From a virus, in the IMG/VR virus record IMGVR_UViG_3300042874_000443, positions 32,001 through 96,000 of that record: DNA of 64,000 nt; one strand, given 5' to 3'. Made by a program: the position numbers and the translations under genes. Each line of letters begins with the position of its first letter. Position 1 is the stretch's first letter. This document shows, piece by piece, positions 24,764 to 51,871 of the stretch. The notes under the pieces were generated by a model. That model made no database searches. It had not been told where the DNA came from and worked only from the letters and a program-made list of their open reading frames with translations.

Positions 24764-24790
24764 GGGTTGCCGTCTCCAGTTACGGTGAAA

Positions 24791-24798
24791 ATGATAGG
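24791..24798 (-). promoter_or_regulatory. -10 element CC-TATCAT
   Basis: CCCCCTATCAT; 27-nt leader containing GGAG. Confidence 0.65.
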
Positions 24799-24821
24799 GG
24801 GCTGTTCACTGAAAAACAAAC

Positions 24822-33226: not shown

Positions 33227-33705
33227 CAGTTGTTCCTCTCGTGCGGGCAGGTCCCGTACAGCCCCTTGGCCATGTTGCAGTTGTGGCAGAGCGTCCGAAA
33301 CCCAGACGGAAAACCGTTCGTGATCAACCAAGCATACAGGTTGGCGTTGTTGATCGTTTTGCGGTGTTGATTGCCCCCGCCATCAATGTGGTCGATGCAC
33401 AGAAACAAGAACTCGCGTTCGCCACAACACGCACAGCGGTCACCGTAGTGCTCGATCACTTGGCGGCGACGGTGTTCGTTCCGAATTTTGGCCGTGTCTG
33501 CGTACATGCGGAGGCATGAATCACAGAAACGTTTGGCTGTCGTCTTCTCTCCACCACATGCGCAGCAACGTCCGCTGTCCTCCAACACCTTTGCATGGTG
33601 ATTGTTTCGACAGCGTTCCGTACAGAAAACCTGCGTGCTTCGTCGTGGCGAGAACGACGTCTCGCAGCTTCGACACACGTTGGTGGTTGTTGCGGACGTT
33701 GACAT
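33226..33705 (-). CDS. HNH homing endonuclease with Cys-rich N-terminus
   Basis: CACCGE...CIDHIDGGG...TLCHNCN; lower GC. Confidence 0.85.
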   Translation of the reverse strand: MSTSATTTNVCRSCETSFSPRRSTQVFCTERCRNNHHAKVLEDSGRCCACGGEKTTAKRFCDSCLRMYADTAKIRNEHRRRQVIEHYGDRCACCGEREFLFLCIDHIDGGGNQHRKTINNANLYAWLITNGFPSGFRTLCHNCNMAKGLYGTCPHERNN

Positions 33706-33731
33706 AAGGGCTAAGCGACCTGTTTAGGTCC

Positions 33732-33902
33732 TCACGAAGAACTTGGGAACGATACGACTTTCGGAAGGTTTGCGTCGGGAAGGCCGCCCAGCTGCTTGGT
33801 CTTCTGTGCCTTGAGCGAGCCGAGCGTCGGGGTGATGATCTCGCCGAGCTTCGCTACGACGGCTCGAAGGCCCGCTTCGCGGATGTGACGCGGAAGGCTC
33901 AC
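33732..33902 (-). CDS. 56-aa peptide with leader-like N-terminus (missed by ORF track)
   Basis: MSLPRHIREAGLRAVVAKLGEIITPTLGSLKAQKTKQLGGLPDANLPKVVSFPSSS*; GTGA overlap. Confidence 0.6.
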   Translation of the reverse strand: MSLPRHIREAGLRAVVAKLGEIITPTLGSLKAQKTKQLGGLPDANLPKVVSFPSSS

Positions 33903-35233
33903 GCGCGCTGCGCGGCGTCGATGCGACGGAACATGTCGCGGAGCGACGCCTCCTTCTTGTCGTCGTCCTTCTTCTCGTTCTTGTCGCCGCCGCCGTCCTT
34001 CTTGGCGTCGATCTTGTCTTGGATGAACGACGGGAGTCCGCCCTTGCTCTCGCCCTTGTCGTCGTCCTTCTTCTCGTCCTTCTTGTCGTCCTCCTTCTTC
34101 ATGAACGGCGGAAGGTCATCGGCCTGTTTGGTGCCCTGGTTGCCCGAGCGCCCGTCGTACGCACCGGGGCGCGAGTGCGTCGCCTCCGGGTTGTGCTCGT
34201 TGTAGTTGCTGCGCGAGCCGGGCGGCAGGTTCGCCGGCGCTGCTGCCGTGCGATCCGCTGCTTCCTTCTGCAGGCCGCGGAGGTAGTACGCCTTCTCCTC
34301 GGTGGTCAGGCCCATGCACGCGCGCACGGCCGCGATCTTGGCGTTCTCGTCGAGAGAGCCCGGCAGATACTCGTGCACCTCGGCCGCGACCTTCTTGAAG
34401 AGAGCGATGTACGGGTCTTCGGAAGCGGCCTTGCCCGAGTGCTCGGTGAGCGAGTTCGAACCGCCCGGCGTCTCGGCCGGCTTGTTCGGCTGCGGGGTCT
34501 CGCGACCGATCACGGCCGGACCCGTCACCTGCTTCATCATCTCGCCCAGGGCGCCCTGGTGCGGAAGAACGGCGTAGCCGGGCGGACGCTGCGAAGCGTC
34601 CATCTTCGCTTCGGCCGACGACATCTCCTTGTTGCCCTTGTCGCCGCCGAGGATGGTCGAACCCTCGGCCGACTTGCGGAAGAGGTCCGAGAGCGACGCG
34701 GTACGCGAGTGCTCCTGCACCGAGTTGTCCTTGGAGTCGGTCTCCTTCGGTTTGTTCGGCTGCTCTTCTTCCTTGCCGACCGCGCCCGGACGCGTGTCGA
34801 CATCGGTCTTGCCGAGGCTGTTCTCGGCGTAGCCCGGCGGACGCTGCGACGCGTCCATCTTGGTCTCACCCTGTGGCGATTCGCCTTCGGTGTTCCCCTT
34901 GTCGCCACCCTCGATGGTCGAGCCCTCGGCAGCCTTCGTCATGAGCTGCGTCGCGTTGTAGTCCGCGACCTTCATGACGTCGTCCCACGTCGCGAGCTTG
35001 TTCCACCCGGCAGCCTTGAAGCCCGGCTGCTTCTTGATCCAGTCCGAAGCGCTGACGAGGTCCGTCGCGATCTTGTGGGTCGTCTCGCGACCGACGCCCT
35101 TCAGCGGGTCGATGTCGACGCGCTCGGCGATGTAGTCCGCGACCTTCGCCGCAGTGGTCTCGTCAGGGAATGCGGCAATGCCGCCGTTGATTAACGCGGT
35201 CTGGATGCCTCGGACGTACGCGTGCTTGAACAT
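33899..35233 (-). CDS. Head/core protein with two ~87-aa internal repeats
   Basis: GAGGAG RBS, ATG 35233 (MFKHAYVRGIQTAL leader); repeat AEGSTI.GGDKGN...KMDASQRPPGYA...QPNKP.ET...NS..EHS. Confidence 0.8.
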   Translation of the reverse strand: MFKHAYVRGIQTALINGGIAAFPDETTAAKVADYIAERVDIDPLKGVGRETTHKIATDLVSASDWIKKQPGFKAAGWNKLATWDDVMKVADYNATQLMTKAAEGSTIEGGDKGNTEGESPQGETKMDASQRPPGYAENSLGKTDVDTRPGAVGKEEEQPNKPKETDSKDNSVQEHSRTASLSDLFRKSAEGSTILGGDKGNKEMSSAEAKMDASQRPPGYAVLPHQGALGEMMKQVTGPAVIGRETPQPNKPAETPGGSNSLTEHSGKAASEDPYIALFKKVAAEVHEYLPGSLDENAKIAAVRACMGLTTEEKAYYLRGLQKEAADRTAAAPANLPPGSRSNYNEHNPEATHSRPGAYDGRSGNQGTKQADDLPPFMKKEDDKKDEKKDDDKGESKGGLPSFIQDKIDAKKDGGGDKNEKKDDDKKEASLRDMFRRIDAAQRA

Positions 35234-35260
35234 GCAAGTCTCCTCGGGGGGAACGGTGGA

Positions 35261-35268
35261 ATGATAGG
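35261..35268 (-). promoter_or_regulatory. -10 element CC-TATCAT
   Basis: CGTCCTATCAT; 27-nt leader containing GAGGAG. Confidence 0.65.
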
Positions 35269-35297
35269 ACGGGACGCTCAAATATCCAACGGTTGCA

Positions 35298-35510
35298 CTA
35301 ACCGAGTGCTTGGGCCTTCGAAGCGCCCGTCGCCATTGGTGGTGCGGATGAGGCTGGTGGAGCCATGGTCGATGCGGGCTGTGGTTGTGTTCCCACGGAA
35401 GCCTGCCCACCGAGCATGGGGTTGTAGCCGGCAGCGCCCTGCTGCATGTTGCCGAGCTTGAAGCGTGCGAACGCAGCAGCGCGTCCTCGGTTGTAGGCGT
35501 CGTTGATCAT
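35298..35510 (-). CDS. Leader-motif peptide
   Basis: MINDAYNRGRAAAFARFKLG. Confidence 0.8.
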   Translation of the reverse strand: MINDAYNRGRAAAFARFKLGNMQQGAAGYNPMLGGQASVGTQPQPASTMAPPASSAPPMATGASKAQALG

Positions 35511-35965
35511 TGGAAGGGGTCCTGTGGTGGTTGTGGCGGTGGGGCGCTACCGAGTAGATGTCCGGCACCATGCCCGAGGCGGCCGCCGAGCGCAGCACCG
35601 AGAGGCATACCAAGCATGCCGCCCGCCATGCCGCCGTATGCACCGCCCGCGAGACGCCCAAGTGTTCCGAGCGCATGTGACGCGCGCCCTTCGTTCGGGT
35701 CTGGATTGGTTACCGCACGCATCGCCATCGGTACCATGGCGAGCGTTCCTGCACGACCAATCCAGTTACCGAACGTACCGTACTGTGATGGCCAGAACAC
35801 GTTCTTCCAATGCAACGCACCGCCTGGTGAGAATGCCTTGGGTCCTTGTACGAACGCACGACCTGCATCACCGATGAGCGACCGTTTGGCGAAGTCGACT
35901 ATCCCAGCCACCTTGAAGTGTGACAGGGCTGCGACTACGCCTTGTTCATGTGCCTTTGACAACAT
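35507..35965 (-). CDS. Leader-motif glycine-zipper protein
   Basis: MLSKAHEQGVVAALSHFKVA; GGAYGGMAGGMLGMPLGAALGG. Confidence 0.8.
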   Translation of the reverse strand: MLSKAHEQGVVAALSHFKVAGIVDFAKRSLIGDAGRAFVQGPKAFSPGGALHWKNVFWPSQYGTFGNWIGRAGTLAMVPMAMRAVTNPDPNEGRASHALGTLGRLAGGAYGGMAGGMLGMPLGAALGGRLGHGAGHLLGSAPPPQPPQDPFQ

Positions 35966-37746
35966 CAGTACTGACCCTCTTCGCCAAGGCCAAATTCAGT
36001 GCCGGCAACATACGCTGGAACAGGTGACGCTCCATGCAGATTGGACACATCCCCTCGATGGATACCCGCCAGCAATGACTCTTTGAGATAGCGATGTGCG
36101 AGACGCGCCATCCAGTCAGGGTTGAGAAGAGGTGTGCGCGACGCTGGGCGCATCAACGGCGTGGCGCGTGGGCCATGCTCTGCAATCAACACGGACGTCA
36201 CACCGTTCCGGGTCAGTTGGTCCGCCATCGGTTGCGTCACAAGCGTGCCTGCCGTGTGGTGCAGTACATTGTCCGCTAACGTCTCGCCGACCGCGTCCGC
36301 CGTGGGGAGGCGCTTCTTGGAAGATGCGAGCGCAGCATGGAAGCGGTTGTAGTCGACGACGTCGCCCTTCAAGAACGCGTCGTGCGGCCCAGGGTCCACG
36401 ATCTGTACGTGGTTCAAGACCGACTTCGCAAGGGTCTCGAGGTGGCGCTTGTCGACCTCGGAGCCCGAGCGTTTGTAGACGTCAGACAACGCGTCGACGA
36501 GATAGCGACGTCCTTCACCGAGGCCCTTGTGCTGCACGACTTCATCGGGCTTGGGAACGCCATCGGAGAGCAGGTCGCCCGCGTACATCGACTGTCCGAC
36601 GTTCACGATGACCTTGTGTGTGGGTGCCACGTAGTGACTGCCGTCGTTGACGAAGACGTAGTGCCCACCTTGAGGCGCCTTGTCGATCTTGGTGATCGTA
36701 CCGTCTCGGTTCGCAAGGGTTGCCTTGTGTGCGAAGGCCGTCGGAATTTCGAGCAGAGACCGCACACCTTTGATGCCTTCGAGGCGTTTTTCATCGTCGA
36801 CACTGGCCACGCGTCCGCCGTGCTTGGCGTTCAGCGAGAACTGCGTCAAAGGCTCGGACAGCGCTTGCGCTGCACGCACTCCGACGTTCGTTCCGATCGA
36901 GTGCATCGCGCCCGAGGGGGACAAGCCCTGGCAGTGCTGACAAACACCGTGCGCGGCTTCGCACGTCATCGGTGACCGTACGACGACTTCTTTGCCCGTC
37001 TTAGCCAGGGTCGACGCGTACTGCGGCGTGATGAGTTTGTTCGTCTTTGCTTCGTAGCGGTCGATGATGTGCGCGTCCGTCGGAAGCATCGCCAGTCCGT
37101 TGTGCGTGCCGCAGTCGATCTTCGTGACGAGCTGATCCCCCATGTTGTTGACGAGGATCTTGGCGAGGTCGCCTGGTTCGACGACGGAGATGTTCGACAG
37201 CACGGCGTTGACGCGCGCTTCGCCCCCGGCGACCCATGCGTCAGCAGGCTTGAGGCCTTCGGAGAAACTGCGATCGATGAGCCACGGGACGATCTTGCCC
37301 TTGGAGTCGCGCGCGAAGACAGGCGCTCCGACTGTACGCATCAGCTGAGGTGCGTTGCCGCGTCCGCCCGACCGCACCATCTCGCCCATCGTGCCCGGGT
37401 GCTTTTTTGCGAGCGTGAGCATCGAGTCGAAAGCGCCGTTGAGCGCCTTGTCCTTGTCGACGGTGGTCGTCGCACGACGAAACGCTTCGACGTGCGGCTT
37501 CATGGCTGCATCGCGTGCCGCGGTGTGCGGTGCGATGTCGTCGAGCCCGACCGAGATGCCGTCGAGCGTTGCCGTCTCGTCGCCCAGGCGTTTGAGCTTG
37601 GTGACGATGTCGGGGTACTTGTGCGGGTCATCCTTGGCGATGCCGACAAGGGTCTCGTTCAACGATCCTTTGGTGAGCGCGCCACGCCCGCGCCACTTCG
37701 GTGGGAGGATCGAGTCGACGAGATGTTGGCCGAGCGTGGTGGCCAT
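35965..37746 (-). CDS. RNA polymerase beta' C-terminal subunit (RpoC2-like)
   Basis: MVRSGGRGN (cf. MADSGARG), SFSEGL (NFREGL), RSPMTC...GVCQHCQG, GVRAAQALSEPLTQFSLNAKH (trigger loop), VDKRHLE. Confidence 0.92.
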   Translation of the reverse strand: MATTLGQHLVDSILPPKWRGRGALTKGSLNETLVGIAKDDPHKYPDIVTKLKRLGDETATLDGISVGLDDIAPHTAARDAAMKPHVEAFRRATTTVDKDKALNGAFDSMLTLAKKHPGTMGEMVRSGGRGNAPQLMRTVGAPVFARDSKGKIVPWLIDRSFSEGLKPADAWVAGGEARVNAVLSNISVVEPGDLAKILVNNMGDQLVTKIDCGTHNGLAMLPTDAHIIDRYEAKTNKLITPQYASTLAKTGKEVVVRSPMTCEAAHGVCQHCQGLSPSGAMHSIGTNVGVRAAQALSEPLTQFSLNAKHGGRVASVDDEKRLEGIKGVRSLLEIPTAFAHKATLANRDGTITKIDKAPQGGHYVFVNDGSHYVAPTHKVIVNVGQSMYAGDLLSDGVPKPDEVVQHKGLGEGRRYLVDALSDVYKRSGSEVDKRHLETLAKSVLNHVQIVDPGPHDAFLKGDVVDYNRFHAALASSKKRLPTADAVGETLADNVLHHTAGTLVTQPMADQLTRNGVTSVLIAEHGPRATPLMRPASRTPLLNPDWMARLAHRYLKESLLAGIHRGDVSNLHGASPVPAYVAGTEFGLGEEGQY

Positions 37747-37747
37747 A

Positions 37748-38131
37748 TCACATCATGGGGTAGCCGCCGCCCGCGTTCATCATGGCGTGCTGGCGTGCCT
37801 GCTCTTCGCGCTTGGCCTGGTTGTGTCGGTGCAACATGTAGAGGCCGCCGCCGGCGAGTAGCGACGGTGCGAGCGTCTTGAGATTGCCGAGGGCGCCCGC
37901 ACGCGCGGCCGCACCAGCAGCAGCGTCTGGCGCTCCGCCGAGGCCTTGGTGCAGGTTGCCGAGTAGGCTCTTGCCCGCCTCGAGCTGACCCGACCCGAAC
38001 GCCTTGGCCCGATCCATGAGGCCAGCACCGGCCGCTGGCGCTGCTCCCATACCTGGAAGTGGGAGCTGGTTGGCGATCTTGAAACGCGCGAGCGCGTCGA
38101 AGTGTCCTTGGGCAACGTAGCGGTCGAGCAT
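37748..38131 (-). CDS. Leader-motif membrane peptide between RNAP genes
   Basis: ATG 38131: MLDRYVAQGHFDALARFKIA; C-terminal LLAGGGLYML. Confidence 0.8.
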   Translation of the reverse strand: MLDRYVAQGHFDALARFKIANQLPLPGMGAAPAAGAGLMDRAKAFGSGQLEAGKSLLGNLHQGLGGAPDAAAGAAARAGALGNLKTLAPSLLAGGGLYMLHRHNQAKREEQARQHAMMNAGGGYPMM

Positions 38132-38607
38132 CAGACGCCTCCGAAACTGGTGTTCTGTCCCATATCGCTGAGCCGGTTGGCGGCATCGCCGCCGGCAAGG
38201 TTCGACGGCGCACCCCACGACGTGTTGCGGTCGAGAGGGTCACGCGCTGCGAGCTGATCGGCGGGCGCCATCGGAGCGTCGATCTCCTTGAGCAGATCGG
38301 CGAGGCTGTCCGCTGTTTCTTCGTTCGCGCGTTTGGCGTTTCGATCTGCTTCAGCCTTATGGGCTGCGTCGAAGCCGTGGAATGTGCGGCTCGGAATCTT
38401 CAGGCGCAGTTCCTCGGCGGCTTGCTTGAAACCGAATCGCTCGAGAGCATCGACGATGCCGAGTAGGTGCGACTTCTTCACGTGCTGCGGCAACTTCTTA
38501 CCCTTGGGAGTGGCGTCCTCCCACTCCTTGACGGTCTTGGAGCTGATCTCGCCGCGGTCTGCCATGGCGTAGAACTTCCCCCGTTGCGCTTGGGACTTGA
38601 AGGGCAC
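38131..38607 (-). CDS. MPFKS-x-AQR small basic domain fused to leader motif
   Basis: MPFKSQAQR...KEWEDATPKGKKLP then SHLLGIVDALERFGFKQA. Confidence 0.75.
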   Translation of the reverse strand: MPFKSQAQRGKFYAMADRGEISSKTVKEWEDATPKGKKLPQHVKKSHLLGIVDALERFGFKQAAEELRLKIPSRTFHGFDAAHKAEADRNAKRANEETADSLADLLKEIDAPMAPADQLAARDPLDRNTSWGAPSNLAGGDAANRLSDMGQNTSFGGV

Positions 38608-38612
38608 GCTCT

Positions 38613-38620
38613 ATTATAGG
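38613..38620 (-). promoter_or_regulatory. -10 element CC-TATAAT overlapping RNAP stop, leaderless spacing
   Basis: GCGCCTATAAT-AGAGC-GTG. Confidence 0.7.
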
Positions 38621-41600
38621 CGCGAGCCTTTGATTTCGATGGGATCGTTGAGCGCGATCTCGCCCCGGTGATAGGCAGCCATCGCTTCTTCCTGGGACTC
38701 GAAGTGCTTTGTTTTCTTGCTGGCGGGGGCCTGCGTCGCTCGATGGAGCCCGAGCAGGCTCTCCATCTCGGGCACGATGTTCAAGACGCCCGGACGCTTG
38801 TCCGCAAAGATCATGTGGGACAGCGTCATTTTCTTCACGTCTTCGATGCCGGCCGGCGTGACGGGCGCGTGGATCTGCATTGCGTCACCGTCGTAGTCCG
38901 CGTTGGTCCCCTTCTCCGCGAAGGGGTTGAGCTTGAGGGTCTTGCCTTCCACGATCTTCGGGTACGCACCGATGATGTTGAAGCGATGTAGCGACGGCGC
39001 CCGATTCACCATCACCGGCCGCTCCCGGGATTCGTTGACCAGCTCCTCGCGTGCGATGGGCTTGCGGTCGTCGACCATCTTCTGCGCGTCGGTTGCGGTG
39101 TACCCGCGACGCACGAGGCGTCCGATCACGAACTTACCGTACATCCCCCAGAGCATTCCTTCGGGCACGCCGATCTCATCCATCGACAACGTCGGATCTG
39201 GCGCGATCGTCGCGCGCCCGCTGACGTCCTGTTGGCGCTTCATCAAACGCGATTGGAAGAAGCCGCTGCCCGGACGTGTGCCGGTGATCGCCGCGAGGTA
39301 TCCCTTCGCCCCGCGCTTCTCGGCACCAGGGCTGACAGGGTCACCGACGCCGTAGAGCGCGCTCACCGCGTCGTAGAGATGTTGGCGTGGCGCCGGATGT
39401 TCGGCGGAGGGCAAGCTCTTCGTCGCGTCCTTGAGCTGGTTGTTGGCGAGGAACGCATCCTTATAGAGAAGGTTCGCGTCGCTGACCTGCAGGCGCCCAT
39501 CCTTGAGCGGCAAGATGGGACGGATGATCGGCGGCGTGACGGGAACCTTCGTGATGACGTAGGCGTCCGCTGGTTTGAGGTTCTTCTCCTTGAGCGCCTC
39601 GAGATACTTGATCTGCTTCACTACGCCGTCGAGCGTGGGGCCGCGGGCCTTCTTCGACTGCGTGTGCAGATCCTTCAGCTTGTCGTCGACGTTGATCTCG
39701 CCGAGCGCCGACTTGAACCACGCACCGCCCTTACCGACGTGTGTCGTGAACTCCTTCTGTGTGAGGCCAAGGAGACGGCGGACAGGTTCTTCGAACACTG
39801 GGTTGACGATCGGTTCGTGAAGGTCGACGTGTGTCCACTTCGTGCCTGACATACCGCCCGTCATGCCGGGGTCGAAGAGCCCTCCGACTTCGGGACGCAG
39901 GTCCTTTGCACGGATCAGACGGCTGGGGTCCTTGAGCGCGCCTGACGACATCGACTTCACGTCGGCGTCCGTGAGGGGGCCGAGCGAGAGACGCGAGCCC
40001 GCCTTCGACACTTTCACACCAGCGCCGGTGAGCATGCTCTGCAGCTTCTCGTAGGCGAACGGAGTTTTGGGTGCAGGCGTCGGCAACCCGAGCTGCACCG
40101 CACGCCAGAACTCGTCGTTGCGTTGGCTCTTGATGGACGCAGCTTCACGCAGCACGTTGCGCGCGTTGTGCGCGACGAGCCCATCGAATTCCATCTTGCC
40201 GATGCCCTTGGCGCCCTCATCACCACCGCGCGCGGGCTGCTGGTTGTAGTCGTACCGCTCGGCGCCGTGCGCCGCCCAGTTCGAGTCCGTCGTCTTGAAG
40301 AGCTTGAGGATGTAGCTCTTGCCGACGACGACGTTGGGGATCTTCTTGCCGGTGATCGGGTCGAGCACGGTCTCTTTGTCGGAGAGGCCGTGTTCGTCGA
40401 GCAGCTTCTTTGCGAAGGCGACGTTGTCGCGGCCCGGCGTGTATTGCGGAACGACGATAGGCTTCCCGATCTTCTCTGCGACTTTGCCCAGCGCCGTCTC
40501 GACGATCTGTGCGGGGTTGATGCGCGAGACGACACCCGCGGACGTGAACAACAGATCGATCGGACGTCCTTGCGCGTCATGCACCATCTGGTGGTCGGGG
40601 ACGATCTTCGCGATGACGCCCTTGTTGCCGAATCGGTTGGAGAGCTTGTCTCCGATCTGCAGTGCTTCTTGTGTTCGAACCGACGCAGCTGCGTGCTTCG
40701 CTGTTTTCGCGATGTCGATGACAGTGCCCGGTCGGTCGTGGTCCCACGTCGCGATGACTTCTTCGTAGGGTTTGATGAGCGCCTTGGACAGCTTGCCGAG
40801 AAGCGCGGCGTCGCCCGTCGCCTTGTTTTCTCGAACGCCCACGATGATCGGGTCGCCCGGATGAAGCGTCACACCGTGCTTGACCACGCCGTCGTCGTCG
40901 AGCTTGTCGTACTGCTCCTTCGTGTACCGACTGCCGAAGTACGATCGATGACGCTCACGTCCGAGCTGCGTGTCGCCCTCACGTGACACCGCGTGCTGGT
41001 ACATGTGCTCGCTCGTCAGCTTGTCCGCCGCGCCTTGCGAAACGACGATACCGTCGTTGGTGTTGAGGCCGCGGTACGGCATGTACGCCACGCTCAAGTT
41101 CGTGCCGAGCGCGAGCGCCCCGCCCTTGGTGAAGTTGCTCTCGGCGAGCGGCTGGTTCTTCTTGACGGTATCGCCCACCTTCACGGTCAGCGTGTTGTGC
41201 AGCGCTGTCTTGGCTGCTAGCGGGAAGTCCTGATCGTAGTGGTGGCGCGAGTTTTCGGCTCCCGTCTTTGCGTGGTGCCCGACGTGGATGTAGTCGCCGT
41301 CGATCTTCGTGATGACGCCGTCGTGACGCGCAGTCGGCACGAGCAACTGCACCATGTCCTGTTCGACGGACGAACCGGGGTTCCATGATGCGACCTGAAC
41401 CAGTGGCGCTTCGCGATGGGTGAGCGGTAGCGCCTGTCCTTGATGCTTGCTCGCCATCAGCACACGGTTGCCCTGGATGCCGTAGACGAAGGGCAACAGG
41501 TTTGACGTCGGTCCGTACTGGTCAGCAACGTGTTCGATCTGATGTGTCACCTTGTCCGCAGACACGCGCGACACCACCCCGTGCGCCATCGCATCGACCA

Positions 41601-42975
41601 TCTTGCCGGGCTTCACGACTTCGCCGGGGAAGGCGATGACCGACGCAGCCATGTCGCCCGCCTTGAGGTAGGTCGGACGTCCCGTCTTCACGTCGATGAC
41701 GGGGGCGTAGAGGTTGCCCTTGTCGTCACGGCGCGCGCCGATCGCTGCGCGTAGGTCGACACCGATCTTGAAGCTCTCAGGACTGCGCGCGGGGTCGAGG
41801 ATGCCCAGGTGCGTCGGGTGAACATCGCGAGCCTCGAGCGGGATGGCGCGGTCGGATGCGATGGCTCCTTCGCCGAGCATTGTGACGCGCGACGCTTCGT
41901 CGAGCAGTTCCATTGGATTGATCTGCATCGGGACCGCGCTGAGGGAACTGCCTGTGAGCAGTCCATGCATCGAGCGCGTGAAGGGGCCCGCAGGCAACGC
42001 CTTCTTGATGTCGCCGTGGCTGGCGTCCAGTTTCCAGCCCAGCTTGGCTTTCATCGCGCGCGCCTCGAGCGCAACACGTTCCTTGACGAAGTCGTCCACC
42101 GAGTGGAACGTCTTGAACGCGAGCGAATCTCGGTCGTCGACGTCCGCAGCTGTCTTGTGTACGTCGAGCAGCTTCTTGGACGCAGCAAGGATGGCAGCGG
42201 GCGACGCCTTCTCGTAGGGGTACCCGAGCGTGTGGTGCGTGACCGCGGGGTCCATCGAGGTGTTGTCGAAGTACTCACGCAACACACGCGACTTCTCGTC
42301 CGTCGTTGTCGCGGTTTGCTTGGCTGGATGCACCAGCGTTTCGTACAGCTTGTCGACGTGCTTGTCGGGGTTCTTCCACGCGTCTCGATTCATCGACGCG
42401 ATCTCGGGGCCCCAGTTCGTTGCGATGTCTTGGTGCGGGATACCGAGCGCACGCAAGACAGGGTGCAGTGGGATCTTCGATGTTGTGTGCGACGGTTGCA
42501 TGTAAAGGAGCCCCTTCTCGGGGTCCATCGACATGCGAAAGTTCGCGCCCTTCGCTAGGTTGAACGTTGCCTCCAGTTCTTCATTGCCGCGCCGACGGAT
42601 GTACGCACCCGGTTTGGTACGAATCTGGTTGGAGACTGAGTACTCCGTCCCATCGAGAATGAACGTGTGTCGAGGCGTGAAGTACGGCAACTGAAGAAGC
42701 GTGAAGTCTTTGGCGTGGTTGACGGTGCTGCCGCTTGCGTCCTTGACCGTCAGGTCTCCACGTACCCGCTCCGCGAGCGTCTTGCCCTCGAGCACCGCGT
42801 GTTTCTGTTCACGCGACGAGAACTCTTTGGGTTCGACACGGACGTTCGTCAGCTCGAGGGTGTGCTTGCCCGCCTTGAGCGGGAACGCTTGCTCGAGGCC
42901 TTCGACGACCTTCTTGCGGATCATCTCGCGACGCGTGGCCGCGTCTTCGAGAACGGGTCGTAGATTCGGCAGCAT
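38614..42975 (-). CDS. RNA polymerase beta subunit fused to N-terminal beta' (RpoB-RpoC1-like), catalytic
   Basis: RDVHPTHLG, GNRVLMASKHQGQALPL, GDKLSNRFGNKGVI, SRINPAQ, GIGKME; then GGLFDP, PVTPPIIRP, SGRATI, NRAPSLHR, NADYDGD (38884-38904). Confidence 0.95.
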   Translation of the reverse strand: MLPNLRPVLEDAATRREMIRKKVVEGLEQAFPLKAGKHTLELTNVRVEPKEFSSREQKHAVLEGKTLAERVRGDLTVKDASGSTVNHAKDFTLLQLPYFTPRHTFILDGTEYSVSNQIRTKPGAYIRRRGNEELEATFNLAKGANFRMSMDPEKGLLYMQPSHTTSKIPLHPVLRALGIPHQDIATNWGPEIASMNRDAWKNPDKHVDKLYETLVHPAKQTATTTDEKSRVLREYFDNTSMDPAVTHHTLGYPYEKASPAAILAASKKLLDVHKTAADVDDRDSLAFKTFHSVDDFVKERVALEARAMKAKLGWKLDASHGDIKKALPAGPFTRSMHGLLTGSSLSAVPMQINPMELLDEASRVTMLGEGAIASDRAIPLEARDVHPTHLGILDPARSPESFKIGVDLRAAIGARRDDKGNLYAPVIDVKTGRPTYLKAGDMAASVIAFPGEVVKPGKMVDAMAHGVVSRVSADKVTHQIEHVADQYGPTSNLLPFVYGIQGNRVLMASKHQGQALPLTHREAPLVQVASWNPGSSVEQDMVQLLVPTARHDGVITKIDGDYIHVGHHAKTGAENSRHHYDQDFPLAAKTALHNTLTVKVGDTVKKNQPLAESNFTKGGALALGTNLSVAYMPYRGLNTNDGIVVSQGAADKLTSEHMYQHAVSREGDTQLGRERHRSYFGSRYTKEQYDKLDDDGVVKHGVTLHPGDPIIVGVRENKATGDAALLGKLSKALIKPYEEVIATWDHDRPGTVIDIAKTAKHAAASVRTQEALQIGDKLSNRFGNKGVIAKIVPDHQMVHDAQGRPIDLLFTSAGVVSRINPAQIVETALGKVAEKIGKPIVVPQYTPGRDNVAFAKKLLDEHGLSDKETVLDPITGKKIPNVVVGKSYILKLFKTTDSNWAAHGAERYDYNQQPARGGDEGAKGIGKMEFDGLVAHNARNVLREAASIKSQRNDEFWRAVQLGLPTPAPKTPFAYEKLQSMLTGAGVKVSKAGSRLSLGPLTDADVKSMSSGALKDPSRLIRAKDLRPEVGGLFDPGMTGGMSGTKWTHVDLHEPIVNPVFEEPVRRLLGLTQKEFTTHVGKGGAWFKSALGEINVDDKLKDLHTQSKKARGPTLDGVVKQIKYLEALKEKNLKPADAYVITKVPVTPPIIRPILPLKDGRLQVSDANLLYKDAFLANNQLKDATKSLPSAEHPAPRQHLYDAVSALYGVGDPVSPGAEKRGAKGYLAAITGTRPGSGFFQSRLMKRQQDVSGRATIAPDPTLSMDEIGVPEGMLWGMYGKFVIGRLVRRGYTATDAQKMVDDRKPIAREELVNESRERPVMVNRAPSLHRFNIIGAYPKIVEGKTLKLNPFAEKGTNADYDGDAMQIHAPVTPAGIEDVKKMTLSHMIFADKRPGVLNIVPEMESLLGLHRATQAPASKKTKHFESQEEAMAAYHRGEIALNDPIEIKGSRL

Positions 42976-42992
42976 TTTGGTACAAGACTCCG

Positions 42993-43370
42993 TTAGGGCA
43001 GCCGTCGCGGTCGTTCGACAGGTTCAGCATCGCCCGCGTCTTGGTCGTTCGCCGGCGCCGGACGTGTTCGCGGCGTCAGGTAGACCAACGCCACCATGAA
43101 GTCGCCTTCCTTGGTGAACGTGCGGTCTTCGTAGCGCATTACAGCTTCGCCGCGCAGCACTTGGTTCATGACGTCTTCGTAGGCCTCGCGGTCTGCGGGA
43201 AGCGCGTAGACCTCGGAGTGCGCTTCGAAGTCCAGGTCAGGCCCGCCGCGGTTGACGCGCGGCTCGAACGCCGTCCTCCCTGGGCCGTTGCTGAACAGAC
43301 TGCCGATGTCGTTGCTGACCTTCTGCGCGCGTTCGACGACGGCCGCGAAGTCTTCTGATTCTTGGGGCAT
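42993..43370 (-). CDS. Hypothetical protein
   Basis: 125 aa between portal and RNAP; TGA-TAGGAT-5nt-ATG promoter-like. Confidence 0.7.
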   Translation of the reverse strand: MPQESEDFAAVVERAQKVSNDIGSLFSNGPGRTAFEPRVNRGGPDLDFEAHSEVYALPADREAYEDVMNQVLRGEAVMRYEDRTFTKEGDFMVALVYLTPRTRPAPANDQDAGDAEPVERPRRLP

Positions 43371-43381
43371 GGTTTATCCTA

Positions 43382-45184
43382 TCAACCTACCGCCGGAGGT
43401 CCAGCGGGGGGCGCACCGCCCGTACCACCAGACGGGTCGCCGCCCTGGCGCGACATCGCGATGGCCTGCTGATTCATCTGCGTGGTCTGGTCGTGCAGAC
43501 GTTCCTTCACGACGGCGTACATCACCATGTCTTCGGTCTGCAACGCGTGCATCTGCGACTGGCGCGTGCCGGGGTCGAGGCCCATCAGCTGTTGAACAAG
43601 CTGGTCTGCCTGCGCGATGACAGCCTGCTGGTCGTACGACAACCCTTGCTGCCCCATCTGCGCTTGCGCGCGTGCGCGAGCGCCCAGATCGTTCTGGCGT
43701 TTCTGCATCTCGATCTGCAGCTCTTGCGCGACGCGCGCGTCGTCGAGCGCTTCCTGCATGCGCCACTTCCGCTCGTCGGAGGGGTCGATGTTGAACGTCT
43801 CGCCCATCGTTCGCTTGGAGATCCAGGGTCCTGTCGTTGGGTCTGCGCCGTTGAGCTGGAGGAGCAGCGCCTTCTGTTGCACGTCGTCGATGAAGCGGAA
43901 GGGCGCGAGCGTGACCACGACGGTGCCGCGTCCGAGTTGTTTGGCGGCCTTGTCCGTGACCCACTGCAGGAGGTCGTTGAGGTCACCCGTCTGATGGACG
44001 AGCTGGTTCTCGAGCACACGGAGCTGGATGCCTGAGCCCATCGCCGAGAAGCCGCCGTAGATGAACTCCTTGGGTAGCCCCATCGCCGCGATGATGTTGT
44101 CCTCGGCCGCCTGGACTTCGCCGAGCGTCATGAGCGCGCGGGCCTGACCGCCGAGGTGCGTGACCTCCGCAGGGACTGGCGACCACATGATGTGCAGCGG
44201 GTCGCGGCGCCACTTCTTGACGCTGCTCTTCATCTCGTCTGACCACTTCGCCAGCGAGATCGTCGTCATCGGGTCGGCGTTCGCCGTCGACTGCTTCGGC
44301 GAGATGATGCGCAGCGGGACGATGTAGTCGAGCGCGATCGCTTCGTTCGCCTTGCGGAGCACCGCTGCGTAGAAGAACAGCTTGATCGTCGACGCCAGCG
44401 GCGGAAAGCCCCACTGGGCCTCGATGCCCGCAGGTGCGTCCATGCGCATGTGGAAGACCTGACCCTCGGCGAACTTGAAGATCTTGTCTTCGCGGATCGC
44501 TTCCAAGAACTCCATCGGCATCGTGTCGATGAGGTGCTTGTTCCCCTTGGCGCAGCGTTCCTTAATCTCCTTGGGGATCGTGTAGTAGTACTCGCTGTGC
44601 CCGGTGATGGGGTTGTAGTCGATGTCCATCAACTTCGGGTCCCAGCGGATCACCGAGATGCGGTCCTTGCGCGTGATCTTGCGGTCGACGATGTTCTTCG
44701 CACCGACGTCGACGCGCGTCTTGCAGCCACTGCACTCGTAGTTGAAGGCCAGCTTCTTGAGTTTGAACTTGTAGGTGATCTGCTGGATGTTCGTCAGCGT
44801 CTGGCAACGCGGGCACTTCAGGAAGCGCACGAACGGCGAGTACATCGAGAAGAACGCGTTGCCGTAGACGAACTTGTCAACGGCCGCACGGATCAAGATG
44901 CGCTTGGTCTTGAGCGTCTTGTTGTGGAGGTCCTCGTAGTATTCCTTGAGCGCTTCGTTCTGCGTCTCGTAGACGATGTCCGTGACGGGGTACGTGCAGA
45001 ACTTCTGCAGCGCCGCGTAGATCTGCGAGCTGTTGAAGTAGAGGTATTCGCAGAGGCGGAAGAGGTCCTTCAGCTTCCGGGGCGCGAACGCCGTGAGGAA
45101 GTCGAAGAGCGGGCTGCCGTGCGAAGACACGTTGTGCGTCGCGAGATCAGCGACCCCGGGGTCGAACATTCCATCAGCGGCCAT
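43382..45184 (-). CDS. Portal protein
   Basis: 600 aa; DKFVYGNAF, WGFPPL, IIAAMGLPKEFIYGG portal motifs; CxxC pair insert; Q-rich tail. Confidence 0.8.
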   Translation of the reverse strand: MAADGMFDPGVADLATHNVSSHGSPLFDFLTAFAPRKLKDLFRLCEYLYFNSSQIYAALQKFCTYPVTDIVYETQNEALKEYYEDLHNKTLKTKRILIRAAVDKFVYGNAFFSMYSPFVRFLKCPRCQTLTNIQQITYKFKLKKLAFNYECSGCKTRVDVGAKNIVDRKITRKDRISVIRWDPKLMDIDYNPITGHSEYYYTIPKEIKERCAKGNKHLIDTMPMEFLEAIREDKIFKFAEGQVFHMRMDAPAGIEAQWGFPPLASTIKLFFYAAVLRKANEAIALDYIVPLRIISPKQSTANADPMTTISLAKWSDEMKSSVKKWRRDPLHIMWSPVPAEVTHLGGQARALMTLGEVQAAEDNIIAAMGLPKEFIYGGFSAMGSGIQLRVLENQLVHQTGDLNDLLQWVTDKAAKQLGRGTVVVTLAPFRFIDDVQQKALLLQLNGADPTTGPWISKRTMGETFNIDPSDERKWRMQEALDDARVAQELQIEMQKRQNDLGARARAQAQMGQQGLSYDQQAVIAQADQLVQQLMGLDPGTRQSQMHALQTEDMVMYAVVKERLHDQTTQMNQQAIAMSRQGGDPSGGTGGAPPAGPPAVG

Positions 45185-45236
45185 GGTTTACCTCGCCAAC
45201 ATGTAACATCGTAACGTGATAGAAAGGCCAACACGT

Positions 45237-47222
45237 ATGGGCAAAGCCCTGATGGATGTCCGTGTTGGGCGTGCAGGAAACGGGACCCCCGTGTTCCTGG
45301 TTCCTGGACAGAACCCGACGTTCGGACGCGTCTTCGGCGCGGTGTGGGACACGACACGCGCGCTGTGGATGTACCCCGCGTTCTTCCCCGCGGCCGACAA
45401 GGTGCTCGCAGACCTGCAGACCGTCGCCAGCGACGTCAACGTCGTCATCTCGGACGTCGCTAAACGGCACATCGATTCGCTTGCAGACGTTCGTCGTCGT
45501 GCCGAAGCGAAGGACCTGCCTGCTGATTTTGGGTTCGTCACAGAGCCGTACCAGCATCAGATCGAAGGGCTGTGCCACGTGTTCTACAACATGCGGGCGG
45601 CACTGTTCTACGACCCCGGTCTCGGCAAGTCGAAGATCGCGATCGATCTCCTTCGGCTGCTCCGTCACACCGGCGTCAGGTCCCAAGCGCTGGTGCTCGG
45701 GCCCCGCATCACCGTGCGGAACTGGGGACGTGAGATCGATCGTCACGCAGGCCGCCAACTGTCGTGGATCACCTTGACAGGCACCCCGAAACAGAAACGG
45801 GAAGCCCTCGAGCGCGCGGCCGCGGAGGGTACCGACATGGTTTTGTCGACGTACGACACTGCGAGAAGTTTAGTGGATTTGCTCGTAGAACGGCTGCCTT
45901 ACAGCATTCTCGTCTGCGACGAGAGCCACAACGTGAAGACGTGGCAGTCCGAACGCACCAAAGCGACCTGGGAGATCGCCCAGAAGGCGGTCCGGCGCAT
46001 CCTCATGACAGGGTCACCAACCGAGGGCAATCCGCTCCATCTGTACGGTCCCTACAAGATCTTGGGCGACTGCTTCATGCCCGAGAACTACTTCAAGTTC
46101 AAGAAGACCTTCGTCATCACGCGAGGCCCCAACTCTCCGATCGTAGTCGGTTACAAGAACCTCGACGTCATCAATGCCCGTACGACGTTCTTGTCGCTAC
46201 GACGTACCAAAGAGGAGTGTCTTGACCTCCCCGAGCGCACCTTCGTAGACGTGGACTACGAGCTGTCGCCAGAGCAGGGCACGTCCTACAACCAGATCGT
46301 TACGACGATGGGCATCGACCCCGCGACGCTCAACATGCTCGTCACTGCGATGCGTACTGCCGGCGGTAACGCCCTGCCGATGCCGGCGACACTTCCTCCA
46401 GAGATGGAGATGCCGCACCGTGCAGCGGCGCTCACCAAGCTCTTGCAGATCACGTCAGGATTCCTCGTCAAGAACGAGAAGGACCTCCAGTTCTGTGACA
46501 CCGCTGAACAAGGACAGCAGTGCCGTCATTTGCAGCGATGCATCGAGAACAAGATCCTGCCGCACACGCCTCGCTGTCATGTTGACCAGACGCCATGGCC
46601 TACGTCGCTTACACGGTTCGACGAGAACCCCAAGCTCGACGCGATCATGGAGCTGCTCACGAACATTCTCGAAGTTCCGAAGCACAAGGTCATCATCTGG
46701 TGCGCGTTCCATCCTGAGATGGACTTGATCACGGAGCGCCTGACGACCGCCGAGGTCAAACACGTGCGCGTCGACGGAAACGTCCGTGACCCGATGGTAC
46801 TGGTCGATCAGTTCAATGACGACCCGGATACACGCGTCTACGTCGGACAGGTGACGACAGGTGTCGGGATTACGTTGAATGCTGCAGCGTACATGATCTA
46901 TAGCTCGTTGCCGTATTCGCTCAATTCGTACAACCAGTGTTTGGATAGAAACTATCGCATCGGACAAGGCGAGAAGGTTACGGTGTACCGCATGCTCGGT
47001 CGGTCAACCTTGGAGGCGGCCGTCGCCTACCTGCTTGACCACAAGGTGGATGTCGACTCACTGCTCACGAACAAGATCGAATGCGCGATGTGTCTAAATA
47101 GCATCCGTTGTTTGGCAGAAGGAATCGAGCCATTCGAGACGGGATGTATCTACCCCAAGCGCGTTGATCGCCCCATCGTCAAGGCGTATGCGCTCCCGAT
47201 GTTCCCTGGAGGTTCGCGATGA
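45237..47222 (+). CDS. SNF2-family helicase
   Basis: PYQHQ, DPGLGKS, CDESH, MTGSP, LRRTKEECLDLP, GVGITL, QCLDRNYRIGQ. Confidence 0.92.
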   Translation: MGKALMDVRVGRAGNGTPVFLVPGQNPTFGRVFGAVWDTTRALWMYPAFFPAADKVLADLQTVASDVNVVISDVAKRHIDSLADVRRRAEAKDLPADFGFVTEPYQHQIEGLCHVFYNMRAALFYDPGLGKSKIAIDLLRLLRHTGVRSQALVLGPRITVRNWGREIDRHAGRQLSWITLTGTPKQKREALERAAAEGTDMVLSTYDTARSLVDLLVERLPYSILVCDESHNVKTWQSERTKATWEIAQKAVRRILMTGSPTEGNPLHLYGPYKILGDCFMPENYFKFKKTFVITRGPNSPIVVGYKNLDVINARTTFLSLRRTKEECLDLPERTFVDVDYELSPEQGTSYNQIVTTMGIDPATLNMLVTAMRTAGGNALPMPATLPPEMEMPHRAAALTKLLQITSGFLVKNEKDLQFCDTAEQGQQCRHLQRCIENKILPHTPRCHVDQTPWPTSLTRFDENPKLDAIMELLTNILEVPKHKVIIWCAFHPEMDLITERLTTAEVKHVRVDGNVRDPMVLVDQFNDDPDTRVYVGQVTTGVGITLNAAAYMIYSSLPYSLNSYNQCLDRNYRIGQGEKVTVYRMLGRSTLEAAVAYLLDHKVDVDSLLTNKIECAMCLNSIRCLAEGIEPFETGCIYPKRVDRPIVKAYALPMFPGGSR

Positions 47223-47599
47223 AGATCGTCGTTACGTATGAGGCCGCTGACATCACACGCCTGATTCGCCAAGACATGGCGAAGCAGGGCATCACGACCA
47301 CCGACGGTGACGTCAAGTACGTCAAAGGCAAAGCCGTGGTTTCCGTCGAAGTGTCGAGCGACGATGTCCCGGCGCCGAGCCCTGTTCCGGCGCCCGCGGA
47401 AGAACACGTACGACCTGAAGTGCCCAAGACGGCGCCGCCCAAACTGGAAGCCCTCTCTGGAGGGAACGAACCGTTCGACATGGATGCGATCCATCGCGCC
47501 TCCGCGAAGGTCGCCGCCACCAACCCGGGGAAGTTCCCGGTGCCTGAACGTCAGCTCATGGAAGGGGAGTCGTTCGACTTCCCAGGAGACAAGCGATGA
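47219..47599 (+). CDS. Hypothetical protein
   Basis: ATGA overlaps at both ends. Confidence 0.7.
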   Translation: MKIVVTYEAADITRLIRQDMAKQGITTTDGDVKYVKGKAVVSVEVSSDDVPAPSPVPAPAEEHVRPEVPKTAPPKLEALSGGNEPFDMDAIHRASAKVAATNPGKFPVPERQLMEGESFDFPGDKR

Positions 47600-50454: not shown

Positions 50455-50889
50455 GTGCCTGTCTGTTCTGCCTGCAAACGTCCCAAGCGAAAGGATCAGT
50501 TCCACTTCGCCAACAAGGCGCGTGGCGAGCGGCACCGCAAATGTAAGACCTGCGCTTGCAAAACAGCGCATCAGTACTACCGAGACAATCGTGACGCTGT
50601 TTTAGTGACAGTCGCCCGACGAACTGTTCGTCGGAAACGTGAATGGCAGCAATGGATCGACGGTCTCAAGGACGCACCTTGTCTTGATTGCGGTGGGCGC
50701 TTTCCAAGCTACTGCATGGACTTCGACCACTGCAGAGGCGGAGCCAAGCGCTATTCAATCTCGGAACTGACGTCTAACCGTCTTTGGTCAAAGACACGCA
50801 TCTTGACGGAAATCGCAAAGTGCGATCTCGTGTGTGCAAACTGCCATCGGATCCGTACACACAAACGACGCAAGACGCACAAGTATTAG
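50455..50889 (+). CDS. HNH endonuclease
   Basis: CSAC...CKTC; CLDCG...MDFDH...KCDLVCANCHRIRT; lower GC. Confidence 0.85.
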   Translation: MPVCSACKRPKRKDQFHFANKARGERHRKCKTCACKTAHQYYRDNRDAVLVTVARRTVRRKREWQQWIDGLKDAPCLDCGGRFPSYCMDFDHCRGGAKRYSISELTSNRLWSKTRILTEIAKCDLVCANCHRIRTHKRRKTHKY

Positions 50890-51677
50890 AGGTACGCGTC
50901 TTCGGTCGAAAGGCCGACACGCGTCTTCAGCTCGTTGTGCAGGAGCTGCATGCCGTTGATCTTGATCTGCCGCACGCGTTCGGGGCACATGCCCATGATG
51001 GCGGCGATCTGCACGAGGTTGCGCGCGTCGTCCTTGACGCCGTAGTAGAGGTTCAACACCGTCTGCTCGCGTGGCGGTAGCCGATCGATTCCTTCACGCA
51101 CGATGGCGCGGAGACGTTCGGCGCCGTAACACGATGTCGGCTCGGCATCGACCACGTCGGGTGTGTGGCGAGCTGCATCGATCGGCATGACGATCCCTTC
51201 AGGGAGTCCGGGGTCCATCGCCATGACCGACTTGCTCTCGGGGCCGTGTTCTTGAACAGCCGCTCGAAACTCCCGCGCCTGCCGGCGCTGTGCTTTCTGT
51301 CGGTGGGCAGGGACGTGGACGAGCGACGCGGTCGTGTAGTCCTGGTTCGACATCTCTTCGTAGATCCACCAGCCGGCGTACGTCAGGAAACGGATGTACG
51401 GCTTGCGTGCCCCGTCGAACTTGTCGGCGGCCTTGAGCAACCCGAGGTTGCCGGCGGCGATGAAGTCCTTGACGGCCTCGGGATCCTTGGTGCGCTTGTG
51501 CGCCATCTTCACGACGAAACGTAGATGGGTTTGCACGATGGCGTCGCGCGCCTTCACGTCCCCTTGCTGTTGCCAGCGACGGATCAGACGTTTTTCTTCC
51601 GCCGCGTCCTCTACGAGAGGGGTGCGTGCGATCTCCGAGTAGTACATCGAAGCGACACGCATCTGGGTTGCAACCAT
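50886..51677 (-). CDS. Sigma70-family RNA polymerase sigma factor
   Basis: YYSEIARTPL (region 1.2), HLRFVV...GNLGLLKAADKFD...RFLTYAGWWI (region 2), LPPREQTVL...ERVRQI (region 4); probable ATG 51677. Confidence 0.9.
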   Translation of the reverse strand: MVATQMRVASMYYSEIARTPLVEDAAEEKRLIRRWQQQGDVKARDAIVQTHLRFVVKMAHKRTKDPEAVKDFIAAGNLGLLKAADKFDGARKPYIRFLTYAGWWIYEEMSNQDYTTASLVHVPAHRQKAQRRQAREFRAAVQEHGPESKSVMAMDPGLPEGIVMPIDAARHTPDVVDAEPTSCYGAERLRAIVREGIDRLPPREQTVLNLYYGVKDDARNLVQIAAIMGMCPERVRQIKINGMQLLHNELKTRVGLSTEDAYL

Positions 51678-51871
51678 GGTTACGGACAACCTACCAAGCG
51701 TTGATCGACTGATCAAATAGTTACGCGTATGGCCACTACCTGTGGGGGCCTCGATCTCGTTTCGTACCCCAGGAATAGCGCCAAGATTTTTCGGATCACG
51801 ATGCTTGCCAAACAAACATGCCGGTCACTAGAGTGGCCCTCCACCTTCACTGCATTCCAAAGGAAAGTGAC

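Follow-up and report, generated by a model that had tools for sequence, protein, structure and literature searches.

A phage RNA polymerase predicted to consist of two chains, with beta fused to the N-terminal part of beta'

Introduction

To our knowledge, the multisubunit RNA polymerases (RNAPs) of phages studied so far are either made of four or five pieces and sigma-independent, as in phiKZ and AR9, or barely similar to the cellular enzymes, as in crAss gp66, YonO and P23-45. Among cellular enzymes, those of Helicobacter and Wolbachia have a natural rpoB-rpoC fusion in which beta' is continuous, of full length and equipped with its Zn-ribbon, and they also contain alpha2 and omega. Here we analysed a 64,000-nucleotide stretch of viral DNA (the window), comprising bases 32001-96000 of IMG/VR record IMGVR_UViG_3300042874_000443, which is linear, 157,408 bp long and 84% complete according to CheckV and comes from an uncultured phage of ~160-190 kb; the GC content of the window is about 62%. 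Two of its genes, encoding a chain of 1453 amino acids (P0001) and a chain of 593 amino acids (P0002), to whose translations all residue numbers below refer, probably specify the catalytic core of a phage-owned, slimmed RNAP of bacterial type, which would consist of two polypeptides, descend by a cut from a one-chain ancestor, be packaged and use sigma factors. The lineage would thereby represent a third route among phage enzymes, namely a minimal but clearly bacterial-type core that is covalently held together, for which no alpha or omega was found and which has its own sigma factors.

Several described phage enzymes are relevant for comparison. In the jumbo-phage RNAPs of the phiKZ/AR9 type, beta' is cut in the same region as in the window and beta itself is split, and phages of the phiKZ type have two RNAP sets and no sigma factor (PMC7598289). 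The single-chain RNAPs of the crAss gp66/YonO type are too divergent for cellular beta/beta' profiles (PMC7481178). The phages designated mReC were collected by the criteria of two separate proteins of at least 800 amino acids and NADxDGD in beta' (Weinheimer & Aylward 2020, PMC7481178), and the examined entries of the mReC table show distinct beta and beta' proteins of at least 899 amino acids each. In Salmonella phage Arash, two genes were called 'beta' and 'beta-prime', and neither a fusion nor a split was remarked upon (PMC10585845).

Features of the two RNA polymerase genes

P0001 is encoded by one open reading frame (ORF) at 38614..42975 and P0002 by another at 35965..37746, both on the minus strand. 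In the Pfam search, P0001 showed Rpb2 domains followed by Rpb1 domains: between residues 139 and 908, Rpb2 domains 3 and 6 (Rpb2_3 and Rpb2_6) scored above threshold and domain 2 (Rpb2_2) was weak, and between residues 1104 and 1383, Rpb1 domain 2 (Rpb1_2) scored above threshold and domain 1 (Rpb1_1) just under it. The best PDB matches of P0001 are likewise bacterial beta chains (3e-70), then beta' chains (6e-45). The chain holds both catalytic double-psi beta-barrels. The beta-type barrel was detected by PF00562 (Rpb2_6) at 3e-46, above the cut-off, and the GNKG motif with the catalytic lysine lies at residues 783-786 (40618-40629, minus strand); the Mg-binding barrel of beta' type was detected by PF00623 at 9.5e-22, with NADYDGD at residues 1358-1364 (38884-38904, minus strand). 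The aspartates of DxDGD are retained in all family sequences inspected.

The beta part of P0001, residues 1 to about 990 (40006..42975, minus strand), is complete to the beta C-terminus, as judged from the junction alignment and from blastp against Salmonella beta (1342 amino acids), in which residues 26-198, 262-713 and 772-989 matched beta residues 48-234, 425-885 and 1060-1337, respectively. The beta' N-terminal part, residues ~991-1453 (38617..40005, minus strand), corresponds approximately to E. coli beta' 14-555 with the Zn-ribbon deleted, according to the alignment, blastp and an AlphaFold2 model; residues 1098-1449 matched Salmonella beta' 203-551. P0001 ends 89 residues past the end of NADYDGD (96 from the motif start), and the remainder of beta' is a separate gene.

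This gene, P0002, was assigned to the second half of beta' by Rpb1_5 (PF04998; residues 190-454, 3e-19), by PDB matches (best 4e-37) and by blastp, in which residues 123-311 and 384-520 matched Salmonella beta' 725-938 and 1201-1332. It covers region F with the bridge helix, Zn site II, the trigger loop and a C-terminal part of the clamp; the bridge helix and the trigger loop were placed by eye from the translation. P0001 contains no cysteine and P0002 exactly four (212, 262, 269 and 272; 36931-37113, minus strand), which, matched by eye, appear to form the beta' Zn site II. An earlier note on the window, made from its letters alone, had read the longer ORF as beta motifs continuing without a stop into beta' motifs up to NADYDGD, had placed both barrels in that chain, and had given the bridge helix, second Zn site and trigger loop to the shorter ORF; the domain order and motif positions of P0001 and the PF04998 match, beta' alignment and four cysteines of P0002 bear out this reading.

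The fusion junction

The window and eight relatives were aligned with the C-terminus of Salmonella beta followed by the N-terminus of beta'. The beta homology extends to about residue 990 of P0001 ('..GAGVKVS' versus '..LGINIEL'), and the beta' homology begins immediately afterwards, at beta' residue ~14 ('SRLSLGPLTDADV' versus 'DAIKIALASPDMI'). The two parts follow each other without a linker, and beta' lacks its first ~13 residues. In addition, the beta' stretch with the Zn-ribbon cysteines is swapped for a short GGxxG loop in all nine aligned family sequences.

P0001 residues 760-1453 were folded with AlphaFold2 from a 59-sequence alignment, yielding a model with a mean predicted local distance difference test score (pLDDT) of 91 and a predicted template modelling score (pTM) of 0.83. 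Blocks of pLDDT 90-97 contain the junction (model residues 231/232), which is spanned by a hairpin made of strands 228-233 and 236-241. When the model was searched with Foldseek, the top matches were bacterial beta' chains (~1e-30), and cyanobacterial gamma gave a template modelling (TM) score of 0.61. In bacterial RNAP, the beta C-terminus and the beta' N-terminus lie side by side in the clamp, and tethering is therefore tolerated. The model is consistent with a simple joining of these two adjoining clamp ends by a turn in P0001.

The earlier note had named a stop or frameshift at the junction as what would refute the fusion, and none was found: in all 27 IMG/VR loci (40-87% identity), as well as in Salmonella phage Arash and Vibrio phage D69, the junction is crossed by a single tblastn high-scoring segment pair in one frame. 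A homologue search limited to P0001 residues 880-1200 returned 626 homologues, and the best 120 of these, which were inspected, cover 100% of the junction region and combine Rpb2 with Rpb1 domains; the longest of their contigs measures 197 kb. Moreover, the 150 best 50%-cluster representatives from a library of 1.84 billion representative proteins (E <= 1e-141) all span the junction. At the DNA level, none of 50,697 phage records matched the 7-kb region at near identity.

Relatives and phylogenetic analysis

The layout of the window is already present, unremarked, in GenBank isolates: Arash (gp206, 1525 amino acids, and gp216, 606 amino acids; OQ632216.1, PMC10585845) and Vibrio phages D69, D148 and D181 (OZ195729, OZ196545 and OZ196140) have the same two chains, which share 34-35% identity with P0001 over 99% of its length and 30-32% with P0002. 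These phages are distant relatives of the window phage, infect Salmonella and Vibrio, and have a GC content unlike that of the window. In Arash the halves are nine genes apart and the catalytic motif reads AADYDGD. The layout is common to a large, almost unstudied phage lineage, with more than 150 clusters at 50% identity and genomes of roughly 150-200 kb, found in environmental metagenomes and in the Salmonella and Vibrio isolates. The layout is a real feature, conserved and subject to selection, and its recurrence across independent assemblies and isolates shows that it is not an artefact.

Eighty-one of the 150 representatives were classed as split; in 76 of them, as in P0001, the chain stops 88-108 residues past DYDGD, and in the other five it runs on for ~600-640 residues, probably due to inserts of ~500 amino acids. 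Another 42 are single-chain beta-beta' proteins of ~2000-2090 amino acids (longer with inteins) that include the P0002-like part, and the rest have inserts or are ambiguous. In the fused forms the P0002-like part begins 0-2 residues after the P0001-like part, the residue matching P0002 ~3 directly following the P0001 end. For instance, P0001 maps to 10037-14521 and P0002 to 14522-16231 of the fused gene (P0297) on contig L036, contiguous to the nucleotide. The cut in the split forms is located between ~I552 and K570 of E. coli beta', and the intervening loop is absent from the family. The fully fused proteins of uncultured phages (P0174, 2077 amino acids, and P0297) are 38-43% identical to the window in the junction fragment and have the same linker-less junction; as in the window, the portal gene lies directly upstream, but beta' is continuous in one chain, and these proteins are basal in the trees. 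No fully fused form was found in cultured phages among the 50,697 phage records, and the form is known from metagenomes alone.

Two trees were reconstructed from query-anchored alignments of the 150 best matches in fast runs, one with FastTree (839 columns that begin at the beta barrel and run through beta'N, Salmonella as outgroup) and one with IQ-TREE under LG+G4 (351 beta'N columns, ten bacterial beta' as outgroups); cyanobacterial, phiKZ, crAss and nucleocytoplasmic large DNA virus (NCLDV) sequences lie outside both. The IQ-TREE analysis, the sole one with several outgroups, recovers the phage family as monophyletic with respect to the ten bacterial beta' sequences (support 100). In both trees one nested clade (support 99) unites the split forms, Arash, D69 and the window among them, and the fused forms make up a basal grade. 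One fused protein, P0181 (2565 amino acids), takes the basal position of the split clade in each tree; it either is sister to every split form or was re-fused secondarily.

The two-chain layout is therefore a derived state within a larger family that has fully fused basal members. Bacteria and the fused phages both have an uncut beta' and all members share the beta-beta' join, which puts the fusion first, followed, most probably, by a single cut. That the cut happened once is provisional, owing to the fast trees, the query-anchored alignments and the use of best matches only.

Comparison with known systems

As in Helicobacter and Wolbachia, the C-terminus of beta is joined in frame to the N-terminus of beta' in the window. 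However, the window's beta' is cut past the barrel, its Zn-ribbon is deleted and no alpha or omega was found; a continuous beta' occurs only in the 42 fused relatives. In cyanobacteria and plastids, beta' is divided in the same region into rpoC1 and rpoC2, and according to alignments with PDB matches, P0002 48-315 aligns with cyanobacterial RpoC2 33-342 and gamma reaches past the P0001 end, so that the window is cut ~12-15 aligned residues N-terminal of the cyanobacterial boundary. In contrast to the separate rpoB of those systems, beta is fused in the window, and the split clade to which the window belongs arises within a grade of unsplit phage forms. Compared with the phiKZ/AR9 enzymes, the window's beta is continuous (residues 26-989 matching beta 48-1337) and fused, and a single RNAP set is accompanied by sigma genes. 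The earlier note had held that this combination matches none of the Helicobacter/Wolbachia, cyanobacterial and phiKZ forms, and indeed neither a full-length fused beta', nor a separate beta, nor a split beta occurs in the window.

Like the mReC phages, the window family comprises uncultured tailed phages with bacterial-like beta and beta' that are detectable by cellular profiles; unlike them, as compared through the mReC descriptions, the window carries NADYDGD on the beta-bearing chain, and its other chain has just 593 amino acids. Six sample numbers from contigs of the window family were searched for in the mReC supplement, and none was present (PMC7481178). In contrast to the crAss gp66/YonO enzymes, the window chains match bacterial beta and beta' strongly in both Pfam and PDB. 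In the part of the literature covered, we found no publication that reports a beta-beta' fusion of this bacterial kind in a phage, a result that is provisional, and reviews of jumbo phages describe only split, sigma-less enzymes (PMC7598289). The enzyme is a real, widespread and unpublished form of a known kind of RNAP.

Such a form is of interest in several respects. It is a natural experiment on whether a beta-beta' tether can replace the alpha assembly platform. A tractable model exists in Arash, which grows on S. Typhimurium ATCC 14028 and of which both chains have been seen by mass spectrometry. In automatic annotation the fused chain receives the name 'beta subunit', and the family goes undetected in surveys whose criteria ask for a pair of long, separate subunits.

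Subunit set, sigma factors and candidate promoters

The earlier note had seen no alpha or omega in the window, and profile searches extend this to the whole 157-kb record, in which neither alpha (PF01193 RNA_pol_L, PF01000 RNA_pol_A_bac) nor omega (PF01192) was matched. Five relatives were also examined for subunits: two complete genomes (with direct terminal repeats, rated 100%), one 94% complete genome, Arash and D69. None of the five matched PF01193, in a search that covered alpha but not omega. The record has a single Rpb2_6 match and, like each of the five relatives, one gene for the catalytic beta' barrel, detected as Rpb1_2 in the relatives. Use of the host alpha is possible.

A sigma-70-family factor of 309 amino acids with regions 2 and 4, identified by profile matches and syntenic with Arash gp196, is encoded at 50886..51815 on the minus strand, and one such gene occurs in each of the five relatives. 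It lies ~8-9 kb from the RNAP genes in both Arash and the window and is likely the promoter-specificity subunit. A second sigma-like gene is located outside the window at record positions 115602-116345 (minus strand; L038:1501-2244); its product is 34% identical to Arash gp10, which matches Sigma70 region 3 at 9e-9. The clamp helices of beta', the main docking site of sigma, are alignable in the family, from which we infer that sigma may bind the RNAP clamp.

A weak sigma region-4 match at 529-609 was rejected as a sigma factor; it is the helix-turn-helix (HTH) of a free-standing homing endonuclease at 490-1278 (plus strand), which has LAGLIDADG_2 with an N-terminal HTH.

A search for k-mers shared upstream of genes returned GC-rich words and a weak CCCTATAATTT signal only, none near the RNAP operon. 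The CCCTATAATTT-like motif has four matches versus 1.5 expected (3 of 100 shuffles reach four), at 16948-16958, 19918-19928, 24789-24799 and 4663-4673, all on the minus strand; at least three such sites immediately precede genes on that strand among the head genes. The motif is a candidate promoter element.

Within 41788-41940 (P0001 ~346-396), the rifampicin pocket shows the changes Q513A, D516M, H526E, S531T and I572D (E. coli numbering). Three of them, D516M, H526E and S531T, affect classic contact residues of the drug. Because of the changed pocket, the enzyme is predicted to be insensitive to rifampicin.

Gene order and probable virion packaging

The genes on the minus strand are arranged in the order portal homologue, 125-amino-acid gene, P0001, orfA, orfB, P0002, 152-amino-acid gene, 503-amino-acid protein and 1021-amino-acid protein. 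The portal homologue (600 amino acids; 43382..45184) is so called because of homology to Arash gp204 only (annotated portal; 30% identity over the full length, with 32% to the D69 gene), Pfam and PHROG searches of eight neighbours (the portal gene, the small ORFs and the 503- and 1021-amino-acid proteins) having given no matches. The 125-amino-acid gene (42993..43370, minus strand) is in the position of Arash gp205, as judged from the ORF and the Arash map. The order of portal, small gene and RNAP is also found in Arash and D69, and in L036 the portal homologue is directly upstream of the fully fused RNAP gene.

Between the two RNAP genes are orfA (144 amino acids; 38131..38565) and orfB (127 amino acids; 37748..38131), and directly downstream of P0002 is the 152-amino-acid gene (35507..35965), all on the minus strand and conserved in 21, 18 and 14 related loci, respectively. 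The orfB ATG overlaps the orfA stop (TGATG), and the orfB stop is 2 nt before the P0002 ATG. A leader-like helix of the form '..AL..FK.A' stands at the N-terminus of orfB (..ALARFKIA) and of the 152-amino-acid gene (..ALSHFKVA) and inside orfA, where it ends in K-Q-A. The arrangement described in the earlier note, with RNAP genes beside the portal and interleaved with leader-motif genes, was thus recovered, the portal homologue being directly upstream and the helix occurring in all three small genes.

Published data on Arash bear on packaging. In its particles, obtained by sucrose-gradient purification and pelleting, gp206 had the highest count of all proteins, 3516 spectra, with 128 unique peptides and 100% coverage (PMC10585845). 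The same data list gp216 with 1210 spectra, ranking fifth, the major capsid protein with 1333 and the sigma gp10 with 467, and gp196 is absent among the proteome rows examined (PMC10585845). The abundance of these orthologues, which are 35% identical to the window chains, and the conserved linkage of portal and RNAP support packaging; by analogy with Arash, the RNAP may well be packaged in the virion of the window phage. An enzyme that acts only from the virion is unlikely, since sigma genes are present and the RNAP set is the sole one.

Proposed function and alternative explanations

We propose that a single-chain beta-beta' ancestor was cut once, just past the beta' barrel, by the insertion of small genes. 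In the resulting enzyme, chain 1 would consist of the whole of beta followed, head-to-tail and linker-free, by the N-terminal ~40% of beta', and would contain both barrels and a complete active centre; chain 2, the remaining beta', would provide the bridge helix, the trigger loop, the second Zn site and the secondary-channel/jaw side. The covalent link between beta and beta' may replace the alpha-dimer assembly platform, and the phage sigma factors may direct the enzyme to phage promoters. The enzyme would be packed into the head, be injected with the DNA and start rifampicin-insensitive early transcription, and would be synthesised anew for later genes. A more far-reaching version, which we put forward tentatively and hold to be less probable than its failure, is that this is the first sigma-dependent, alpha-less, virion-carried RNAP of bacterial type: the link would replace the alpha dimer, the enzyme would be packed and injected with a virion sigma of the gp10 type, the second sigma (50886-51815) would redirect newly made enzyme, and the whole infection would proceed without host RNAP.

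Several observations weigh against the proposal. The Pfam models might miss an alpha-like protein or a second RNAP of very diverged sequence, and completeness of the record is no more than 84%. In a scan of 33000-47500 for sigma-70 promoters and terminators, matches were not above those in shuffles, and sigma-70-like promoters are not enriched around the operon. The N-terminal leader of cargo proteins encoded nearby is missing from both RNAP chains, in which counts of K-x-A, the putative site of a head protease, point neither to avoidance nor to use and are uninformative on packaging (P0001, z = +0.9; P0002, z = -1.6). The Arash particle list, of 116 proteins, includes metabolic enzymes such as ribonucleotide reductases and ligases, and the authors allow for carry-over of abundant infection proteins (PMC10585845); packaging is accordingly regarded as likely but not shown. 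The trees, from FastTree and a quick IQ-TREE run on query-anchored alignments, cover the 150 best matches only, and the activity, subunit composition and sigma use of the family enzymes are deduced from sequence.

Part of this evidence would fit a functional two-chain RNAP that is not carried by the virion, in which case host RNAP would read the early genes, the phage enzyme would be made after infection for middle and late transcription, and the Arash signal would be carry-over. With one RNAP set per genome, the enzyme must act after infection anyway; the missing cargo leader and the metabolic enzymes in the particles agree with this explanation, as does a purification that comprised a sucrose gradient and pelleting only (PMC10585845). 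We nevertheless consider it rather unlikely, given that gp206 exceeds even the major capsid protein in spectra and gp216 ranks fifth, that the RNAP gene follows the portal gene throughout the family, including the fully fused relatives, and that small leader-tagged genes for putative head cargo are interleaved in the same operon.

As to the origin of the split in the proposed enzyme, it is very unlikely that it was inherited from cyanobacterial or plastid rpoC1/rpoC2 or from a phiKZ-type RNAP, with rpoB fused to rpoC1 later and the fused relatives representing re-fusions. The best PDB match of the beta part is indeed cyanobacterial (8gzg_C, 3e-70), the alignment puts the first residue of cyanobacterial RpoC2 opposite P0002 residue ~14, and jumbo-phage RNAPs are cut in the same region (PMC7598289). 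However, the high cyanobacterial score may reflect beta aligning in one stretch (92-1019) without lineage-specific inserts, the cut is ~12-15 residues off the cyanobacterial one, and in both trees, which contain no cyanobacterial sequences, the unsplit forms are basal near the bacterial outgroups and the split forms are one nested clade. The cut is probably a third, convergent and apparently independent use of a permissive site in beta', after cyanobacteria and jumbo phages.

Still less probable is a rejoining of the two ORFs into a single chain at the RNA or protein level, by an intron, a split intein, read-through or a frameshift. The exact abutment of the two parts in the fused relatives and the inteins elsewhere in the gene of relatives could be cited in its favour, but Rfam detected no intron or other RNA family in 35000-45500, Pfam found no intein domain in P0001 or P0002, and the 868-nt spacer consists of two coding genes that are conserved in 18-21 loci and have coupled stop and start codons. 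In Arash, moreover, most of the nine genes between the halves are on the opposite strand, and the split representatives share the end point described above, 76 of the 81 within 88-108 residues after DYDGD and five with ~500-amino-acid inserts. An assembly artefact or decaying pseudogene, in favour of which no observation was made, has a negligible probability, considering that more than 100 independent assemblies and four cultured phages have the same layout, that all catalytic motifs are intact, that the AlphaFold2 model is of high confidence and that Arash gp206 had 100% peptide coverage (PMC10585845).

Inserts in relatives and other observations

A gene for a SNF2-family helicase at 45216..47222 (plus strand; Pfam SNF2-rel_dom and Helicase_C, phrog_62) is divergent from the portal gene and occurs in 23 loci, and also in L036. 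The 503-amino-acid protein (33899-35410, minus strand) contains 15 Lys-x-Ala motifs versus 5.2 expected (z = 4.7). Positions 33226-33705 (minus strand) encode a free-standing HNH homing endonuclease (phrog_1271) that is found in only five related loci. An 1886-bp fragment, L035 (JBAPOI010000909.1), is 86% identical to P0001 577-1204 and was binned in a Candidatus Sulfotelmatobacter (Acidobacteriota) metagenome-assembled genome; it is a lead to host or habitat, too weak to name a host.

In relatives, the fused gene carries in-frame inserts of ~330-530 amino acids at three catalytic hot spots, and the window copy is without any. The sites are the GILDPxxSPES loop (P0001 ~395-416; L011 and L023-L025), the position just before NRFGNKG (779; L019-L021), and that directly after NADYDGD (residue ~1365; several representatives); P0045 is also among the insert-bearing relatives. 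The presence of LAGLIDADG_3 and Intein_splicing domains in P0102 indicates that the inserts are inteins. A GNAT acetyltransferase domain lies within the RNAP chain at L015:11710-12101 (P0008 residues 573-663), in beta near P0001 ~570, and a separate GNAT insertion is present in the beta'C homologue P0276 (residues 613-720). The two insertions are independent of each other, and the acetyltransferase within an RNAP chain is unexplained. In Vibrio phages D181 (OZ196140.1, 144089-149570) and D148 (OZ196545.1, 144091-149572), the annotation divides the fused RNAP gene among four hypothetical proteins and a homing endonuclease. The gene matches P0001 in two pieces and is probably interrupted by an insertion, an intron or intein with an endonuclease, whereas the D69 gene is uninterrupted.

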